Below are positions 1-8,056 of a DNA stretch of 8,093 bases, piece after piece. A program made the translations under genes and the position numbers. Under the pieces are notes generated by a model. It did no database searches and had not been told where the DNA came from. It saw nothing but the letters and a program-made list of their open reading frames with translations. Each line of letters opens with the position of its first letter. The first letter of the stretch is position 1. This stretch comes from a virus (Duplodnaviria > Heunggongvirae > Uroviricota > Caudoviricetes). The stretch lies in IMG/VR virus record IMGVR_UViG_2630968500_000006; one strand, given 5' to 3'.

Positions 1-37
1 AGCTTGGGAAGAAATGACCTGCTTATTCGCACCTTCC
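1..37 (+). mobile_element. IS5-family insertion sequence, terminal inverted-repeat end only (element body lies outside the window to the left)
   Basis: Positions 22-37 read CTTATTCGCACCTTCC, the reverse complement of GGAAGGTGCGAATAAG, which I recall as the IS5 terminal inverted repeat (16/16). It is followed at 38-41 by CTAG, the preferred IS5 target tetranucleotide. The 20 bp inside the repeat differ from my recollection of IS5 itself, so this is a family-level call. Only 37 bp are visible. Confidence 0.55.
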
Positions 38-491
38 CTAGGGACTTTTCCGGGTTGTCCGGGCTAGGAATGGGAACTTTAAATCCTTCCAGCATGGGTT
101 TTCTTATCGAAATGGCGGTAGCACCCACACTTTTTGTCAAGATGTACTGCTTAAAGCTAGATGACATGAAGTAATACAAAAACTTCGTGTCTACGGCATT
201 AGTTGTGATACGAATTCTATACGCCCTTTGATGTAGAGCATATTTCCCCTCAACATAGTGAAATATGTCGCCAATTCCACCTTCACCAGGAATGACTATT
301 GCTACCTCATCAAATTCAAAGGTATCTGACTTCAAGATATTCTTTGAGCGAACATAGAATGGATAAATTCCATTTTCGCTTTCATCCTGACGATTTGAGC
401 TTCCAGTACCGATATCTGCCATAGAACCCAATGTTACCCACTCAACCTCAACCCCATCCAACAGTTTTTCCAGATAGCTCAGCTCGCTCAT
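38..491 (-). pseudogene. hsdS: Type I restriction-modification specificity subunit HsdS, N-terminal target-recognition domain fragment; reading frame runs into the IS5-like end after the motif PIPSPDNPEKSL
   Basis: Hand translation of the minus strand from ATG at 491-489 gives [151 protein letters not shown], then continues into IS-derived sequence (GKVRISRSF...). The start overlaps the hsdM stop in an ATGA arrangement (488-491). The N-terminus (MSE.SYLEKLLDGVEVEW) and the P.PDNPEKSL motif match my recollection of EcoR124-type HsdS. The ORF track omits it because there is no in-window stop. If the IS call is wrong, this is simply a partial hsdS CDS running off the window edge. Confidence 0.7.
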
Positions 492-2050
492 GCCTGTACC
501 TCTCTGCCTTCAATTCTAGCCACGATCGCATCAATGTCTTGGCGTAACTGGTCGATTTTGCTGACCGTGGTTTTCAGCTCTGCATTCAACTCAGCGATAT
601 CGATAATTTCGCGAGTATCTTTCGCTTCCACATAGCTGCTCACCGACAGGTTATAGTCATTCGCTACAACGGCTTCAAACGCGACAGATTTCGCCAGATG
701 AGCAACATCTTCCTTGCTGGCAAATACCTGCATAATCTGTTCGATATGGGCGTCGGTCAGGATATTGTTGTTAGTCTCTTTTTTGAACAGTTCGCTGGCG
801 TCAATAAACTGAACTTTGGTATCCGTTTTATGCTTAGACAGCACCAGAATGTTTACTGCAATGGTGGTGCCAAAGAACAGGTTCGGTGCCAGTGAAATTA
901 CGGTTTCGACATAGTTATTATCGACCAGATACTGACGGATTTTCTGCTCTGCGCCGCCACGGTAAAAAATACCCGGGAAGCAGACAATCGCAGCACGACC
1001 TTTGGCCGAAAGATAGTTCAGCGCATGTAGTACAAACGCAAAGTCAGCTTTGGATTTGGGGGCCAGAACGCCAGCCGGGGCAAAACGCTCATCGTTAATC
1101 AGCGTCGGGTCATCGCTGCCAATCCATTTCACCGAATACGGTGGGTTAGATACGATGGCGTCAAACGGTTTTTCATCTCTGAAGTGCGGCTCAGTCAGTG
1201 TATTACCCAGCTTGATATCAAACTTGTCGTAGTTGATATTGTGCAAAAACATGTTCATACGCGCCAGGTTATAGGTCGTATGGTTGATTTCCTGACCGAA
1301 AAAGCCTTCTTCGATGATGTGGTTATCAAACTGTTTTTTCGCCTGCAACAACAGTGAGCCGGAACCCGCTGCCGGGTCGTAGATTTTGTTAACGCTGGTC
1401 TGCCCGTGCATAGCCAGTTGTGCAATCAGCTTGGAGACGTGCTGCGGTGTAAAGAACTCGCCGCCTGACTTACCGGCATTTGCCGCATAGTTAGAAATCA
1501 GGAACTCATAGGCATCACCGAACAGGTCAATCTGATGTTCGTTGAAGTCACCAAGTTTTAACCCTTCAACCCCTTTCAGAACCGCAGCCAGGCGGGCATT
1601 TTTATCTTTAACGGTGTTACCCAGGCGGTTACTGGTGGTATCGAAATCAGCAAACAAACCTTTGATGTCAGCTTCTGAAGGATAACCGTAAGCAGAACTT
1701 TCGATAGCAACGAAGATGCTGTTTAAATCTGCATTCAGTCTGTCATTAGTATTTGCTTTCGCCGCTACGTTGCAGAAAAGCTGACTGGGGTAGATGAAGT
1801 AGCCTTTAGTTTTGATGGCATCGTCTTTAATGTCATCAGTAATTACGCTGTCATCCAGTTTCGCATAACAGATACTGTCATCACCGGCTTCAATATAGCT
1901 GGAAAAATTTTCGCTGATAAAACGGTAGAAAAGTGCGCCCAGAACGTATTGCTTAAAATCCCATCCATCGACCGAACCCCTGACATCGTTAGCAATTTGC
2001 CAGATTTGACGATGAAGCTCTGCACGTTGTTGAATACTTGTCATTTTCAT
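488..2050 (-). CDS. hsdM: Type I restriction-modification N6-adenine DNA methyltransferase subunit HsdM (EcoR124-like, type IC), 520 aa, apparently intact
   Basis: 520-aa ORF from the track. It carries the SAM-binding motif [10 protein letters not shown] and the catalytic motif NPPY typical of N6-adenine methyltransferases. Length and N-terminus ([25 protein letters not shown]) fit my recollection of EcoR124-family HsdM. Translationally coupled to hsdS downstream. Confidence 0.93.
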
Positions 2051-2185
2051 CCACTTATTTCAGGCTTATGTAATTGGCGGTGATTCTACAGCAACTTGGA
2101 TGCTTTAGCAGTTCGGACATTAGGCTACGAATGATCTGCCTAGAGGTTTGTTAAGCCGCAAAGTGCTGGTGCTTTATGCCTGTGA

Positions 2186-2226
2186 AGTTTATAATTGTGT
2201 ACACATAACGAGTACATGAGGTATTT
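2186..2226 (+). promoter_or_regulatory. phd-doc promoter/operator: -10 TATAAT (2190-2195), perfect 10-bp palindrome TGTGTACACA (2196-2205), second GTACA-containing site (about 2210-2218), ribosome-binding site GAGGT (2217-2221)
   Basis: The palindrome and hexamers are read directly from the sequence. The P1 phd-doc operon is known to be autoregulated by Phd/Doc binding palindromic operator sites that overlap its promoter. I did not find a convincing -35, so the promoter boundaries are approximate. Confidence 0.5.
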
Positions 2227-2448
2227 ATGCAATCCATTAACTTCCGTACCGCGCGCGGCAACCTTTCTGAAGTGCTCAACAATGTTGAGGCCGGGGAAGA
2301 GGTTGAAATCACCCGCAGAGGCCGTGAGCCAGCAGTAATTGTCAGCAAGGCTACTTTCGAAGCCTACAAAAAAGCGGCGCTGGATGCTGAATTTGCATCC
2401 CTGTTTGACACCCTGGACTCCACCAACAAGGAACTGGTTAACCGATAA
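2227..2448 (+). CDS. phd: Phd antitoxin (prevent-host-death), 73 aa
   Basis: The ORF product [73 protein letters not shown] matches my recollection of bacteriophage P1 Phd in sequence and length. Ribosome-binding site upstream. The stop TAA (2446-2448) overlaps the doc ATG (2448-2450). Confidence 0.95.
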
Positions 2449-2828
2449 TGAGGCATATATCACCGGAAGAACTTATTGCGCTTCATGATGCGAATATAAG
2501 CCGCTACGGCGGCCTGTCGGGAATGTCAGATCCGGGTAGGGCAGAGGCCATTATCGGGAGAGTTCAGGCCAGAGTTGCCTACGAAGAGATCACCGACCTT
2601 TTCGAAGTCTCCGCCACCTACCTGGTGGCTACGGCGAGAGGGCATATATTCAATGATGCCAATAAGCGTACCGCGCTAAACAGTGCGCTGCTATTTCTAC
2701 GCCGTAACGGGGTGCAGGTATTTGATTCACCTGAACTGGCAGACCTTACTGTAGGCGCTGCGACTGGCGAGATATCTGTATCTTCTGTCGCCGCCACGTT
2801 ACGTAGATTGTATGGTTCTGCGGAGTAG
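2448..2828 (+). CDS. doc: Doc toxin (death-on-curing), Fic-fold kinase, 126 aa
   Basis: 126-aa product with the Doc-type Fic motif HIFNDANKR (HxFx[D/N][A/G]NKR). Translationally coupled to phd. Size and sequence are as recalled for P1 Doc. Confidence 0.95.
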
Positions 2829-2832
2829 ATTA

Positions 2833-3012
2833 ATGGCACGCAAATACAACAAATTGTCCCGTGAAGCGTTAAAGATGCTTCTTGATGGCGTGAGTCGCCG
2901 CAAGGTAAAGCAATACCTGGTTAGTAAGCAAATTGGTGCCAGGACCGCTATTGCTGTGTTATGCCGTCAGGAAATGGTTGTGCTTAAACAGAGAATGCCG
3001 GGCAGCAGATAA
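2833..3012 (+). CDS. Hypothetical small basic protein (59 aa from ATG 2833; the track ORF starts at 2812 inside doc); positionally equivalent to a P1 post-doc gene (pdcA?), assigned by synteny only
   Basis: ORF in the track (2812..3012). The ATG at 2833 lies 5 nt after the doc stop and is preceded by GGAG (2822-2825), whereas the ATG at 2812 is inside doc with no Shine-Dalgarno. Product MARKYNKLSREALKMLLDGVSRRKVKQYLVSKQIGARTAIAVLCRQEMVVLKQRMPGSR is lysine/arginine-rich. No recognisable motif. Confidence 0.45.
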   Translation: MARKYNKLSREALKMLLDGVSRRKVKQYLVSKQIGARTAIAVLCRQEMVVLKQRMPGSR

Positions 3013-3039
3013 AGCCCAATCAGTGATGAAAGGTGTGAT

Positions 3040-4083
3040 GTGAAAGCCATTATTACTCCCTTTGTACAAAAAGAGCTTGGCGTCGCCACATTCAAAGTGG
3101 ATCAGGAAGTCAGAAAGCTGGTGGAGGCTGGCCGTAAATTTATTATGGAGCCGGTGCCGCGTGAGTTAATCGAGCACATGGACGACGGCCTCGTTGTTTC
3201 CGAGCAAACTATGGCAACAAATGAGGCGTTGCAGCCGTTTTTTAACAGCGATGAACTGTTTCGCCGTATTGGTGGAATTGACTCGCTGGTGGCGTGGTTG
3301 CGCAGGAAAGAGGGGCAATGCCAGGCCGCAGATCGTAGTTGGTGTGACAACCATATTGTCCACGCTGAACGAGACAATAGCGCGGTGTTGTTGTGCTGGC
3401 ATCACGATAACCATTACCGGATGCGTGGTTTTAATGAGCTGAAAGAAACGCTGCACAATAATCGCGTTAACTGGATACTGGATGTCGCCCGTCAGGAAAT
3501 GGGGCTTTCAGATGGCCATGATTTAAGTATTCAGGAACTGTGCTGGTGGGCTTTCATGTGCAACATGATGCACCTGATGCCGGAAGAAGTTTGCCGTATA
3601 TCAATAAATAAGATGAAAGCCGCAACGCAGGATAGCGGACCTCTGAAAGAGGCGGATATTCGCCCGTATGACGATCGCGCTACAGCATATGTTCAGATGA
3701 TGGAAGAACGCGCCGCGCCGATGCGTGCAAAAGTATGCCCTGTGGATGTTGACTCCGACCCTGGCATGGCGCATTTCAAAATACCAAAACTGCAATCGCT
3801 AAAATTACCTGAGTACATGGACTTTGTTGCTTCCCGTCCATGCTGTGGGTGCGGAGCGGCGGGAGCTGGCGCTCACATTACGCCTTATATCGTTCGTCAT
3901 AGTCGATTATGCGCGCATGACATTTACGCAATTCCTCTGTGCCAGTCATGCCAGCGTGATATTGAGCGTGACCGCGATAATTGGGAGAAGACGCACGGTA
4001 GGCTGGCGATGCATCAACGATTGTTCTTTGATTACGCGCTTGGAGTCGGCGTTATCACAAGTCATTCGTCGAGTGTTAGATAA
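3040..4083 (+). CDS. Hypothetical Cys/His-rich protein, 347 aa, GTG start; two HNH-like or zinc-ribbon-like motifs; positionally equivalent to a P1 post-doc gene (pdcB?), assigned by synteny only
   Basis: Long ORF with a GTG start preceded by AAAGGTG (3028-3034). It has 13 Cys and 16 His in 347 aa, clustered as [25 protein letters not shown] and PCCGCG...H...RH..LCAHD...PLCQSCQ. No overlapping ORF of comparable length on either strand. Confidence 0.75.
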
Positions 4084-4084
4084 A

Positions 4085-4126
4085 ATTGCTCTAATGTATT
4101 GCTATTTCTTTAGTTGAGGGTATTAT
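4085..4126 (+). promoter_or_regulatory. C1-repressor operator-like 17-mer (4085-4101, ATTGCTCTAATGTATTG) overlapping a sigma70-like promoter (-35 TTGCTA 4099-4104, 16-bp spacer, -10 TATTAT 4121-4126) upstream of lpa
   Basis: 14/17 match to the P1 C1 operator consensus ATTGCTCTAATAAATTT as I recall it. The operator overlaps the -35 of a well-spaced promoter. P1 lpa (gene 10) is known to be C1-controlled. Confidence 0.55.
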
Positions 4127-4171
4127 ATTCCACGTTGATTAGTTGACATGGGCTAATCAGTAGGTGACAGG

Positions 4172-4624
4172 ATGTTACTTAACTGGCAGGGACGCCACTT
4201 CATGGAAATAAATCACTCACGAATAACATCGTACGAGATTGCGGATTACATGATCCGCACTAAATCTCTTCTATCAGCGAAAGAACTCGCAGCAATTCTT
4301 GAAAAGGAATACCCGCATCTGGATGTCGATAAGCGCGATGTTTATCTGCGCTTAAAGGCTATCGCTGTGTCTAAGTATTCGTCTGTTTTGATTGATGACA
4401 GTACACGCCCACGTAGATTTCAGATCCACTCTCTGAATCCTGAATTCTTTCGCCGCAGCCGCGCTCCGCGCCGGTTTGATGAAAAACTCCAGAACGAACT
4501 CTATATGACGCAGGACGAAAAGGAACGCCGGGAGCACCAGCCTTGGGTAATGGCGCGTCAACTTTTCAATAAGGTGGTCCGTCAGCACCGTCATTACGGT
4601 AATGCCACATCCGCACGTATCTGA
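4172..4624 (+). CDS. lpa: Late promoter activator Lpa (P1 gene 10 product), 150 aa
   Basis: 150-aa ORF directly upstream of pacA and downstream of a C1-operator-controlled promoter, with a ribosome-binding site AGGTGA (4162-4167). The call rests on synteny with P1 (phd-doc ... lpa-pacA-pacB) and expected size. I do not reliably recall the Lpa sequence itself. The start could instead be ATG 4202 (MEINHSR...), though that has no Shine-Dalgarno. Confidence 0.7.
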   Translation: MLLNWQGRHFMEINHSRITSYEIADYMIRTKSLLSAKELAAILEKEYPHLDVDKRDVYLRLKAIAVSKYSSVLIDDSTRPRRFQIHSLNPEFFRRSRAPRRFDEKLQNELYMTQDEKERREHQPWVMARQLFNKVVRQHRHYGNATSARI

Positions 4625-4634
4625 TTGATTGCTT

Positions 4635-4652
4635 GCCCGTTCCGGGCCTTTT
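4635..4652 (+). terminator. Candidate intrinsic terminator after lpa: GCCCG-TTC-CGGGC hairpin followed by CTTTT
   Basis: 5-bp GC stem (4635-4639 / 4643-4647) with a 3-nt loop, followed by a T4 run (4649-4652), 11 nt after the lpa stop. Short stem and short T-tract, so it would be weak. Confidence 0.35.
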
Positions 4653-4710
4653 GACATGTGACTTTCGTTACCCTCGCGTCAAAAAGAGTTTTATACGAAA
4701 GGAAGCATAA

Positions 4711-5904
4711 GTGACCTGGGACGATCACAAGAAGAATTTTGCTCGCCTGGCGCGAGATGGTGGTTACACCATCGCACAATATGCCGCCGAGTTTAATCTC
4801 AACCCAAACACCGCACGTCGTTATCTCCGTGCATTCAAAGAAGACACCGGAACAGCGGATAGCCGTAAGCCAAATAAGCCTGTCAGGAAACCACTAAAAA
4901 GCATGATCATTGATCACGCTAATGATCAACGTGCAGGTGATCACATTGTGGCTGAAACGGCTGAAAAACAAAGAGTTAATGCTGTTGTCAGTGCCGCAGT
5001 CGAGAACGCTAAGCGCCAAAATAAGCGCATAAATGATCGTTCTGATGATCATGACGTGATCACCCGCGCCCACCGTACCTTACGTGATCGCCTGGAACGC
5101 GACACCCTGGATGATGATGGTGAACGCTTTGAATTCGAAGCTGGCGATTACCTGATAGATAACGTTGAAGCGTGGAAGGCCGCGCGCGCTATGTTGCGTC
5201 GTTCCGGAGCTGATGTTCTGGAAACCACTCTTCTGGAAAAGTCTCTTTCTCATCTCCTTATGCTGGAGAACGCCCGGGATACGTGTATTCGCCTGGTGCA
5301 GGAAATGCGCGATCAGCAAAAAGACGATGATGAAGGTACTCCGCCTGAATACCGTATCGCGAGCATGCTAAACAGCTGTTCCGCGCAGATAAGCAGCCTG
5401 ATCAACACCATTTACAGCATCCGGAATAACTATCGAAAAGAAAGCCGGGAGGCGGAAAAGCACGCTTTGTCTATGGGGCAAGCTGGCATTGTTAAGCTGG
5501 CATACGAACGAAAGCGTGAAAATAACTGGTCAGTGCTGGAAGCAGCTGAATTCATCGAGGCGCATGGCGGGAAAGTGCCGCCCCTGATGCTGGAGCAAAT
5601 CAAAGCCGATCTGCGTGCTCCTAAGACCAATACCGATGATGAGGAAAGGCAAACAGCCGTCGGTGGCCCTTCTCTTGAAGATCTGGACAAAGTTGCGCGA
5701 GAACGGGCCGCCAACCGCCGCGCCGATGCCGCATTGTGGATTGAGCAGCGTAGGGAAGAAATCGCCGATATCGTTGATACAGGCGGTTATGGGGATGTTG
5801 ATACTGAAGGTGTATCAAACGACCCATGGCTGGAACAAGACCTGGACGAAGACGAGGAGGAAGACGAAGAAGTCACCCGCAAGCTATACGGGGATGATGA
5901 TTAA
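4711..5904 (+). CDS. pacA: PacA, terminase small subunit (pac-recognition subunit), 397 aa, GTG start
   Basis: 397-aa ORF with ribosome-binding site AGGAAG (4700-4705). Contains the hexamer array characteristic of the P1 pac site in its 5' region. N-terminal helix-turn-helix-like segment and acidic C-terminal tail. The stop TAA (5902-5904) overlaps the pacB ATG. Confidence 0.93.
4904..5062 (+). other. pac packaging (cleavage) site: seven TGATC(A/G) hexamers, four left and three right of a central region, each containing a Dam GATC
   Basis: Hexamers read directly from the sequence: TGATCA at 4904-4909, 4911-4916, 4923-4928, 4938-4943; TGATCG at 5034-5039; TGATCA at 5046-5051 and 5057-5062. 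The 4 + 3 arrangement over about 160 bp inside pacA is the known architecture of the P1 pac site. Confidence 0.85.
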
Positions 5905-7418
5905 TGGCCAGAAGTTGCGTAACGGATCCACGTTGGCGCGAGCTGGTGGCGCTATATCGTTATGACTGGATTGCGGCCGCTGATGTTTTGTTCGGCAAAA
6001 CACCTACCTGGCAGCAGGATCTGATTATTGAGTCTGTGCAGGAACAGGGTAGCAAGACATCTGTTTCGTCTGGTCACGGTACCGGGAAATCAGACATGAC
6101 TTCTATCATGATCATGTTGTTCATAATCATGTATCCCGGTGCCCGCGCCATTATCGTTGCGAACAAAATTCAGCAGGTAATGACCGGTATATTCAAGTAC
6201 ATCAAGATAAACTGGGCTACTGCCACCAGCCGTTTTCCATGGCTTGCTGATTATTTTGTTCTGACAGAAACCGCTTTCTATGAGGTTACTGGTAAAGGTG
6301 TATGGACTGTAGTACCGAAGGGCTTTCGTCTGGGAAGTGAAGAAGCTCTCGCCGGTGAACACGCAGATCATCTTCTGTATATTATCGATGAAGCCTCCGG
6401 TGTCAGTGATAGAGCTTTCGGTATCATCACCGGTGCTCTTACCGGACAGGATAACCGCATCTTATTACTGTCACAGCCTACACGCCCAAGCGGCTATTTC
6501 TACGATACTCACCATAAACTGGCCAAGCGTCCTGGTAACCCAGATGGCGTTTATACGGCGATCACGCTTAACAGTGAGGAATCACCGCTGGTAACGCCAG
6601 AATTTATCAAAATGAAGCTGGCGGAGTACGGCGGGCGTGATAACCCTATGTACATGATTAAGGTGCGCGGCCTATTCCCTAAATCACAGGACGGCTTCCT
6701 TCTTGGACGTGATGAGGTTGAACGTGCAACGCGGCGGAAAGTTAAGATTGCCAAAGGATGGGGCTGGCTTGCATGTGTGGACGTTGCTGGTGGTACGGGA
6801 CGGGATAAGTCAGTTATCAATATCATGATGGTGTCCGGCCAGCGAAATAAACGCCGTGTAATCAACTATCGAATGCTGGAATACACAGACGTTACAGAAA
6901 CGCAGCTTGCCGCCAAAATTTTCGCAGAATGTAATCCTGAGCGATTCCCCAATATCACCATAGCGATAGATGGAGATGGCCTGGGTAAAGCAACAGCGGA
7001 TCTGATGTACGAGTATTATGGTATTACCGTACAGCGTATACGCTGGGGTAAAAAGATGCATAGCCGTGAAGATAAGAGCCTGTACTTTGATAAACGTGCT
7101 TATGCCAACGTTCAAGCCGCAGAGGCCGTAAAATCTGGTCGTATGAGACTGGATAAGGGTAATGAAACTATTGAGGAAGCGTCGAAAATCCCTGTAGGGA
7201 TTAACTCCGCAGGTCAATGGAAGGTGATGAGTAAGGAGGATATGAAGAAAAAACTCAACCTGCACTCACCAGACCATTGGGATACATATTGTTTCGCTAT
7301 GCTGGCGGATTATGTTCCCCAGGATGAAGTGCTTAGCGTCGAAGACGAAGCGCAGGTTGATGAGGCTCTGGCATGGCTTAATGAATTAATATTTGCTCTA
7401 ATAAATTGTGTTTTTTAA
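5904..7418 (+). CDS. pacB: PacB, terminase large subunit (ATPase/nuclease), 504 aa
   Basis: 504-aa ORF translationally coupled to pacA. P-loop/Walker A-like SGHGTGKS and Walker B-like [10 protein letters not shown]. Position and size as in P1. Confidence 0.93.
7392..7408. promoter_or_regulatory. C1-repressor operator-like 17-mer TTTGCTCTAATAAATTG overlapping the last codons of pacB
   Basis: 15/17 match to ATTGCTCTAATAAATTT. It shares the 10-mer TTGCTCTAAT with the lpa operator at 4085-4101. Two occurrences of such a 10-mer in 8 kb are very unlikely by chance. Confidence 0.45.
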
Positions 7419-7533
7419 CTACCGATGTTACATTGAGCCTGACCTCTTGCGCCTTGAGGCATTTTCGGTTTATGCTTATCAGGCACCTCATTAAAACGGG
7501 TGCCGGGATTGGCCTCCCGCTTAAGTCTAAGGC

Positions 7534-7567
7534 GATACAGACGCCGCTCGCGTCTTTTTTTTGTATC
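7534..7567 (+). terminator. Candidate rho-independent terminator downstream of pacB: GACGC-CGCTC-GCGTC hairpin followed by T8, nested within an outer GATACA/TGTATC inverted repeat
   Basis: Inner stem 7540-7544 / 7550-7554, then eight T (7555-7562). Outer arms GATACA 7534-7539 and TGTATC 7562-7567. On the minus strand the run is A-rich before the hairpin, so it is oriented for plus-strand termination. Confidence 0.5.
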
Positions 7568-7727
7568 GGCGTACACGCACACCTCTACAATGGTGGGCTG
7601 TATGGGGCTACCTTCGGGTAGGCTGGTTACCTTGGACGCCAGTAAGGCCAACTCCGTACAGTCCACCGCCAGCAAGATTGGTCTCTTCTGCGGTGGTTAC
7701 ATACCAACGTCTAAGGAGGCTGCCAAT

Positions 7728-7949
7728 ATGGCTACTATCCCTACCCCAACTCATCCTGAATTTATCTGGCGCTTTTACTCCTGCCAAAAACGTCACTATC
7801 ACTTCGTTATTGCACCAACAGAAGATGAGGCCCGCTCTCAGCTTCCTGACGCCCCATGTATTTTCTCTGCCCGTTTTTCCACTGATTCACGCAATTCTCT
7901 CAGTTACTGGTGCCTCCCTGTTAACGCTTCTGCTCAGGAGGGACTATGA
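7728..7949 (+). CDS. Hypothetical small protein, 73 aa
   Basis: ATG at 7728 preceded by a consensus Shine-Dalgarno AAGGAGG (7713-7719) with 8-nt spacing. It is the 3' part of the 149-aa track ORF 7500..7949, whose upstream portion spans the terminator and lacks a ribosome-binding site. Product MATIPTPTHPEFIWRFYSCQKRHYHFVIAPTEDEARSQLPDAPCIFSARF... has no motif I recognise. Confidence 0.4.
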   Translation: MATIPTPTHPEFIWRFYSCQKRHYHFVIAPTEDEARSQLPDAPCIFSARFSTDSRNSLSYWCLPVNASAQEGL

Positions 7950-8056
7950 GAACGTCATTAGTCACCCGTGAAGAGATGATCGAGGCAATTGAACAGCACA
8001 CTGCCTGTATCAGTACCAGGGATATACCAGGCGTTATTGCCAACTACTTCATGTGA
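7946..8056 (+). CDS. Hypothetical very small protein, 36 aa, translationally coupled to the preceding ORF
   Basis: ATG 7946-7948 overlaps the upstream stop (ATGA) and is preceded by GGAGGG (7938-7943). Product MRTSLVTREEMIEAIEQHTACISTRDIPGVIANYFM. All three plus-strand frames close between 8054 and 8093. Not in the ORF track, presumably because it falls below the length cutoff. Confidence 0.25.
   Translation: MRTSLVTREEMIEAIEQHTACISTRDIPGVIANYFM

Follow-up and report, generated by a model that had tools for sequence, protein, structure and literature searches.

Organisation of the locus

The question raised by this locus is why a type I hsdM-hsdS pair is found beside the phd-doc addiction genes of a P1-like element, with an insertion sequence at one end and no hsdR next to hsdM. 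The window, by which we mean the whole analysed stretch of 8,093 nucleotides, is 100% identical to positions 88996-97088 of NZ_CP060066.1, a 148,192-bp plasmid of the Escherichia coli strain G5 from human faeces. For the parts outside the window, the coordinates of L001 were used, a 48-kb stretch that surrounds it. A sequence-only reading had described an EcoR124-like hsdM-hsdS pair back to back with phd across a 176-bp spacer, and all of these features were recovered in their places; the arrangement is real and no product of chance. The hsdM-hsdS genes are on the minus strand, phd-doc is on the plus strand and the spacer extends from 2051 to 2226. We conclude, with a probability of about 93%, that the locus is a type IC (EcoR124-family) hsdM-hsdS-hsdR operon in a known slot of P1-type plasmids, which was later disabled by two IS insertions. 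Positions 1-2226 would then be the promoter-proximal part of this operon, transcribed away from phd-doc.

HsdM is a type IC subunit

The hsdM gene (488-2050, minus strand) is intact and encodes 520 amino acid residues, as seen from its open reading frame and the Pfam domains HsdM_N and N6_Mtase. When EcoR124II HsdM (PDB 7bst_D) was aligned with the HsdM of the window, 7 mismatches were found in 519 aligned residues (about 98.7% identity, 1144 bits). The window protein has the motifs DPAAGSG (SAM binding) and NPPY (catalysis), and the hsdM stop codon overlaps the hsdS start codon in an ATGA at 491. Type I families are described in a passage of PMC3874165 as delimited by sequence, complementation and antibody cross-reaction. 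In similarity, domains and motifs, HsdM belongs to the type IC or EcoR124 family.

ISKpn26 splits hsdS

The window begins with the terminal end of ISKpn26, a member of the IS5 family (1-37, plus strand), with its inverted repeat CTTATTCGCACCTTCC at 22-37. The element is 1196 bp long and its bulk is located to the left of the window (L001 18842-20037). It is flanked by a CTAG target-site duplication, one copy of which is at 38-41 and the other at L001 18838-18841. The hsdS 5' fragment (38-491, minus strand) retains 151 native codons for the N-terminal conserved stretch and TRD1, contains a Methylase_S domain and matches the type I specificity models of PADLOC. It is cut directly before the central conserved TAEL-repeat helix, and its frame runs 15 codons into the IS. 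The remainder of hsdS was found past ISKpn26 at L001 18083-18841. There, the distal open frame (L001 18083-18856) has 257 codons when counted from a TTG in the IS end and 226 codons from the RefSeq start.

When ISKpn26 and one copy of CTAG were removed in silico, an uninterrupted HsdS of 402 residues was obtained. The conserved blocks at its N terminus, centre (TAELTAEL) and C terminus are identical to those of the EcoR124 HsdS. Both TRDs differ from EcoR124, which indicates that the specificity of the window HsdS is different. Like the N6-spacer form of EcoR124, the rebuilt protein has two TAEL repeats, whereas three are given for the EcoDXXI HsdS in reviews. HsdS can be assigned to type IC only after the in silico removal of ISKpn26; the replicon itself carries a split gene. 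TRD1 of the rebuilt protein matches the Escherichia albertii plasmid p2014C-4015-2 and TRD2 matches pD72-mcr1, a pattern that, judged by these matches, is classic hsdS domain shuffling.

A probe for the ISKpn26::hsdS junction detected the source plasmid only in PLSDB. The insertion is therefore private to this plasmid and presumably recent. Positions 1-37 of the window alone match thousands of plasmids, as is expected of an IS end.

hsdR is found beyond hsdS and is split by IS903B

The sequence-only reading had supposed that any hsdR would lie beyond the IS. This is where it was found, outside the window and past both ISKpn26 and the hsdS remainder, but itself split by an IS903B of 1057 bp. 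The two hsdR pieces have 820 codons (L001 15499-17961) and 215 codons (L001 13779-14426). The insertion is at about codon 820 of hsdR and is flanked by a 9-bp target duplication, ATTTTTCTA. The domains HSDR_N, SWI2_SNF2, T1R_D3-like and EcoR124_C were detected across the two pieces. After the in silico removal of IS903B and one copy of the duplication, an uninterrupted HsdR of 1038 residues was obtained, to which the HsdR proteins of intact relatives are 98.3-98.7% identical (98.7% for pD72-mcr1). The HsdR of pD72-mcr1, in turn, aligns with the EcoR124I HsdR (PDB 2w00) over its full length of 1038 residues with 2284 bits. The rejoined pieces therefore make up an HsdR of the EcoR124 type, including EcoR124_C.

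A tblastn search of the whole 148-kb replicon found hsdM once, together with a single hsdS and a single hsdR, both split; no second hsdR was found elsewhere in it. The 4-bp duplication of the IS5-family element and the 9-bp duplication of IS903B, together with the terminal inverted repeats, identify both events as simple insertions. Both look recent and private to the G5 plasmid.

The operon is unbroken in relatives

Three IS-free carriers were compared: the P1-like plasmids p2014C-4015-2 from E. albertii and pD72-mcr1 from E. coli, and the conjugative IncF plasmid NZ_CP020496.1. In these relatives hsdM-hsdS-hsdR is unbroken and divergent from phd, with hsdR starting 121 bp after hsdS, and the intergenic sequence is common to all three plasmids and the window. 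The deposited Punavirus genome vB_EcoM-673R5 also has the cassette in M-S-R order and divergent from phd. This order, with a spacer before hsdR, is that of a type IC operon. The hsdR gene presumably has a promoter of its own. Since M-S-R is the order in the relatives, the lack of an hsdR on the hsdM side is the normal layout and no sign of a loss. The sequence-only reading was right that no hsdR is present between hsdM and phd, but not in taking this as an anomaly.

The two P1-like relatives agree with the window in the cassette, the junctions and the neighbouring genes, at 95.6-97.8% identity. In pD72-mcr1 and p2014C-4015-2, hsdS and hsdR are uninterrupted and the P1 backbone is complete, whereas in the G5 plasmid both genes are split and about half of the backbone is present. 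The prototypes EcoR124I and EcoR124II of R124 and R124/3 share with the window lineage a near-identical HsdR, the ATGA overlap and the M-S-R order, and have P1-derived DNA downstream of hsdR, the same 84 bp that are found in the IncF example. In the G5 plasmid, unlike in the prototypes, hsdS and hsdR have each taken up an IS.

The distribution of the arrangement was tested with a 501-bp probe for the hsdM-phd junction, which was counted in PLSDB when at least 80% of it was covered. It was found in 671 PLSDB plasmids, compared with 478 for an equivalent probe of the P1 humD-phd junction, so that the hsdM-phd junction is commoner in PLSDB than that of the reference P1. Among the complete E. coli genomes, 655 of 5426 carry it (about 12%). 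The carriers include non-mobilisable P1-like plasmids as well as conjugative IncF plasmids.

The cassette occupies a variable slot of P1-type plasmids

P1 and P7 share both flanks with the window lineage, which are pmgS and pap to the left of the slot and phd, doc, pdcA, pdcB, lpa, pacA and pacB to its right. Between these flanks, the homology to P1 (NC_005856) ends at 84482 and resumes at 87970, which is the humD stop codon and corresponds to position 2151 of the window. P1 84482 is in the pap-pmgT spacer, where a small open reading frame without annotation ends. The hsd cassette of 6.15 kb thus occupies a slot that in P1 holds 3.5 kb with pmgT, pmgU, pmgV, upfM-O, hot, lxr and humD, and in the IS-free relatives the uninterrupted operon is found between the identical P1 junctions at 84482 and 87970. 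P7 shares the left boundary but has a third cargo in the slot, a set of 8 kb plus IS903 and humD, where the window lineage has hsdR-S-M. In both P1 and P7, humD directly precedes phd, and the P1 genes hot and lxr are further upstream. As the sequence-only reading had proposed, the arrangement differs from that of the reference P1, and it differs from that of P7 as well. In a survey of P1-like phage-plasmids (PMC9603915), pmgT-humD is listed as variable region 8 of eight that are highly variable, which agrees with the proposal of an accessory patch.

The sequence-only reading had named two findings that would speak against it. One was that the arrangement is the standard layout of P1, which it is not. 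The other was an intact operon with an undisrupted hsdS, which turned out to be the norm in the relatives but is not present in the replicon itself.

The connection of such operons with P1 is already known. According to the misc_feature entries of the P1 RefSeq record, 84263-84482 matches the DNA that follows the EcoDXXI hsd locus with 96% identity, 84399-84482 shares 98% identity with R124/3 DNA downstream of hsdR, and 87969-88647, covering phd-doc, is 98% identical to the DNA upstream of the EcoDXXI hsd locus. EcoDXXI of pDXX1 therefore resembles the locus studied here in having phd-doc DNA ahead of hsdM and, past hsdR, the P1 spacer between pap and pmgT. A paper by Tyndall et al. from 1997 (Mol Microbiol 23:729), cited in PMC12707154 and PMC2853133, reportedly deals, by its title, with the P1 homology around type IC hsd genes. 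Since the link between type IC hsd and the P1 phd-doc region was published in 1997 and is noted in the P1 annotation, the arrangement matters little as a discovery.

In the IncF plasmid NZ_CP020496.1, exactly 84 bp of the left P1 remnant (84399-84482) are kept, adjoining an IS1. Presumably, the cassette is exchanged between P1-type and IncF plasmids through homologous recombination within their common P1-derived flanks. The exchange may have gone either way, with the cassette taking the place of pmgT-humD or pmgT-humD that of the cassette. A search for repeats in 1-2400 detected short chance pairs only, and the cassette edge has no flanking repeats. The GC content is 45.2% in the cassette part and 49.0% in the P1 backbone part of the window, with a similar GC3; this small gap has nothing to say on the origin of the cassette.

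The phd-doc genes and the divergent intergenic region

The phd gene (2227-2448, plus strand) encodes an antitoxin of 73 residues with the PhdYeFM_antitox domain that is 100% identical to P1 Phd. It overlaps doc (2448-2828, plus strand), which encodes a toxin of 126 residues with the Fic/Doc fold (Pfam Fic) and differs from P1 Doc by two substitutions (98.4% identity).

The spacer between hsdM and phd consists of two parts. The cassette-specific part (2051-2150) is conserved in the relatives, and the P1-homologous part (2151-2226, plus strand) follows P1 and P7 from the humD stop codon onwards. The annotated Pphd promoter, with its -35 element at 2167-2172 and its -10 element TATAAT at 2190-2195, falls entirely within this P1-homologous part, which also holds the palindromic GTGTACAC / GAGTACA(C/T) sites. 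The phd promoter region departs from that of P1 at two bases, both close to the ribosome-binding site. With overlapping genes, P1-like proteins and the Pphd promoter and operator of P1, the two genes are predicted to form a Phd-Doc module, which is intact and should function in addiction.

The promoter of hsdM-hsdS is presumably within 2051-2150. A strict scan of 1950-2300 for promoter and terminator consensus sequences detected nothing, and a relaxed scan gave one weak hsdM promoter candidate on the minus strand, with CTGCTA at 2111-2106 as -35 and TAGAAT at 2088-2083 as -10 element. A convincing sigma-70 promoter for hsdM was found in neither scan.

The P1 backbone of the G5 plasmid

Downstream of doc, the genes pdcA, pdcB (DUF968), lpa, pacA and pacB (2833-7418, plus strand) are P1 backbone and follow the gene order of P1 and P7, with a DNA identity of about 92%. 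Both phages align with 2151-7386 of the window in a single collinear piece at about 92% identity, as is expected of a P1-like element. Of the P1-like reference pD72-mcr1, however, only 49% has a counterpart in the G5 plasmid, which lacks tail and baseplate genes over about 29 kb and another 16 kb or so. The complete virion and lytic gene set of a Punavirus is therefore not present in the G5 plasmid. It is a P1-derived plasmid that has probably lost its phage capacity, and is better described by this term than as a phage-plasmid. The plasmid also carries many IS copies as well as lac, fec, ompC, dcu and other chromosomal-type genes.

State of the system and alternative explanations

The bipartite target of an enzyme of the EcoR124I family is set by the two recognition domains of HsdS, and cleavage is ATP-driven and directed against unmodified DNA. 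For EcoR124I, HsdM2-HsdS is described in PMC3874165 as a methyltransferase that acts on a bipartite target and becomes a translocating endonuclease once HsdR is added. In the G5 plasmid, ISKpn26 has hit hsdS at the boundary of TRD1 and the central helix, and IS903B has hit hsdR. Native HsdS can no longer be made and HsdR is truncated in its C-terminal EcoR124_C domain, so that restriction and native modification should be gone. As far as can be predicted from the genes, restriction is most likely abolished in this replicon and modification is probably lost too. According to the part of PMC3874165 that deals with truncated type IC HsdS proteins, these use the central helix to dimerise. The proximal HsdS fragment ends before this helix and is therefore unlikely to be active. 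With about half of the P1 backbone lost from an IS-riddled plasmid, the inactivation of hsd fits a general decay. The locus is a clean example of such decay, in which two private IS hits disable a defence system and the neighbouring addiction module stays intact.

The sequence-only reading had suggested that the module was acquired or remodelled by the IS. An IS would then have brought hsdM-hsdS beside phd or have severed hsdR, and the arrangement would be an IS-made novelty of this replicon. The IS end does adjoin the hsdS fragment in the window, and the G5 plasmid has many IS copies and foreign cargo. However, the hsdM-phd junction is identical base for base in IS-free plasmids and recurs in hundreds of records, as counted above. 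In addition, the target duplications are intact and both genes are restored when the elements are removed, which rules out an IS-mediated deletion and a delivery by a composite transposon at both sites. These are simple insertions into a widespread operon, and a role of the IS in building the arrangement is extremely improbable. It is almost certainly not the case either that the locus encodes an orphan HsdM-HsdS methyltransferase without HsdR, for epigenetic marking or for the self-protection of the phage-plasmid against restriction. Such an enzyme would agree with the intact hsdM and with a window that has no visible hsdR, but in the source plasmid and its relatives hsdR follows 121 bp after hsdS, and the interruption of hsdS means that an M2S enzyme of the native specificity cannot form.

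A variant of this idea is that the distal hsdS fragment, which has the central helix, TRD2 and the C-terminal helix, is expressed and forms a homodimeric specificity subunit, which with HsdM acts as an orphan methyltransferase on a palindromic target. Type IC halves that work as homodimers, among them an engineered EcoDXXI form with an N-terminal deletion, are described in a section of PMC3874165. The distal open frame, whether of 257 or 226 codons, and the intact HsdM would be compatible with such an enzyme. On the other hand, neither a promoter nor a good ribosome-binding site is evident for the fragment, which is located behind 1.2 kb of IS that is transcribed in the opposite sense, and the proximal fragment is without any dimerisation helix. 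Restriction would be absent in any case, since hsdR is broken. We consider an active half-HsdS very unlikely. The type IC operon disabled by two insertions accounts for the layout of the locus, and an annotation that reads hsdM without hsdR beside an IS should be checked for the type IC M-S-R order first.

The left edge of the cassette

OpmgT/PpmgT of P1 are an operator of the C1 repressor and its promoter. Both are kept at the far end of the cassette, to the left of the window, and in all hsd-carrying relatives PpmgT points into the 3' end of hsdR. If PpmgT fired upon prophage induction, antisense transcription would cut HsdR synthesis during lytic growth and couple restriction to the lysogenic or lytic state. 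This coupling is suggested by the conservation and orientation of the sequence, but is unlikely. The type III res-mod genes of P1 are apparently absent from pD72-mcr1. The interval from PpmgT to the 3' end of hsdR shows no terminator on the plus strand and contains a conserved small open reading frame of 28 codons that encodes a hydrophobic peptide.

The hsdS allele and the hsdR edge of the cassette

The hsdS allele of the source plasmid NZ_CP060066.1 was compared with the loci L002 and L003 (pD72-mcr1), using positions 18083-20491 of L001, the 48-kb piece of the plasmid that surrounds the window. The allele was found to be a mosaic, in which the first target recognition domain, TRD1, matches that of the E. 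albertii plasmid p2014C-4015-2 and TRD2 matches that of pD72-mcr1. The central region contains two TAEL repeats and, from this repeat number in HsdS, a target with an N6 spacer is predicted.

The stretch L001 13511-13703, which lies outside the window at the distal margin of the cassette and corresponds to P1 84293-84482, has kept OpmgT/PpmgT, a C1-bound operator and its promoter in P1, and these are now directed into hsdR from its 3' end. A conserved hydrophobic ORF of 28 codons, MNTAFKIIMAAIYFWLFSITFGGIVAHG, lies between OpmgT/PpmgT and the hsdR end; it has an AGGAG ribosome-binding site and is unannotated in P1. The homology to P1 ends exactly at the stop codon of this ORF.

The hsd-carrying P1-like plasmid pD72-mcr1 was also inspected for the type III res-mod pair of P1. 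In the interval from ref/mat to darB (L003/L012, 80563-89480 in record coordinates) the pair is apparently absent. This result, obtained with one plasmid, suggests that each element has a single restriction system and that the systems occupy different slots.

Sequence changes at phd and pacB

Directly upstream of phd, two bases in the window, at 2217 and 2224, differ from P1, P7 and all hsd-carrying relatives. The sequence reads GAGTACATGAGGTATTT in the window, whereas it is GAGTACACGAGGTGTTT in the others, and the changed bases fall into the second palindromic site and the Shine-Dalgarno region. At the 3' end of pacB (window 7386-7418), the stop codon TAA of P1 and the relatives is TTA in the window, which extends the ORF by 10 codons to 504 amino acids, compared to 494.

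The pacB-c1 interval and the content of the plasmid

Between pacB and c1, the window contains an immI-like module (7483-8053) that P1 lacks at the same place. It is made up of an isrK RNA (7483-7560, 60.8 bits), a C4 antisense RNA (7586-7673, 75.9 bits) and icd (7728-7949), together with the beginning of an antirepressor gene, which is interrupted by ISSen4 at about 8053. In relatives the icd-ant pair is unbroken at this place, and some of them have a second icd-ant copy at another location.

The whole replicon (L006, L007, L001 and L008) is P1-derived and about half of the P1 backbone is gone. Among its cargo are lacIZY, the fec operon, ompC, dcuB/dcuR, agp and wrbA; the replicon also encodes a large protein with Ig-like domains along with a secretion system, and contains copies of at least 10 IS types.
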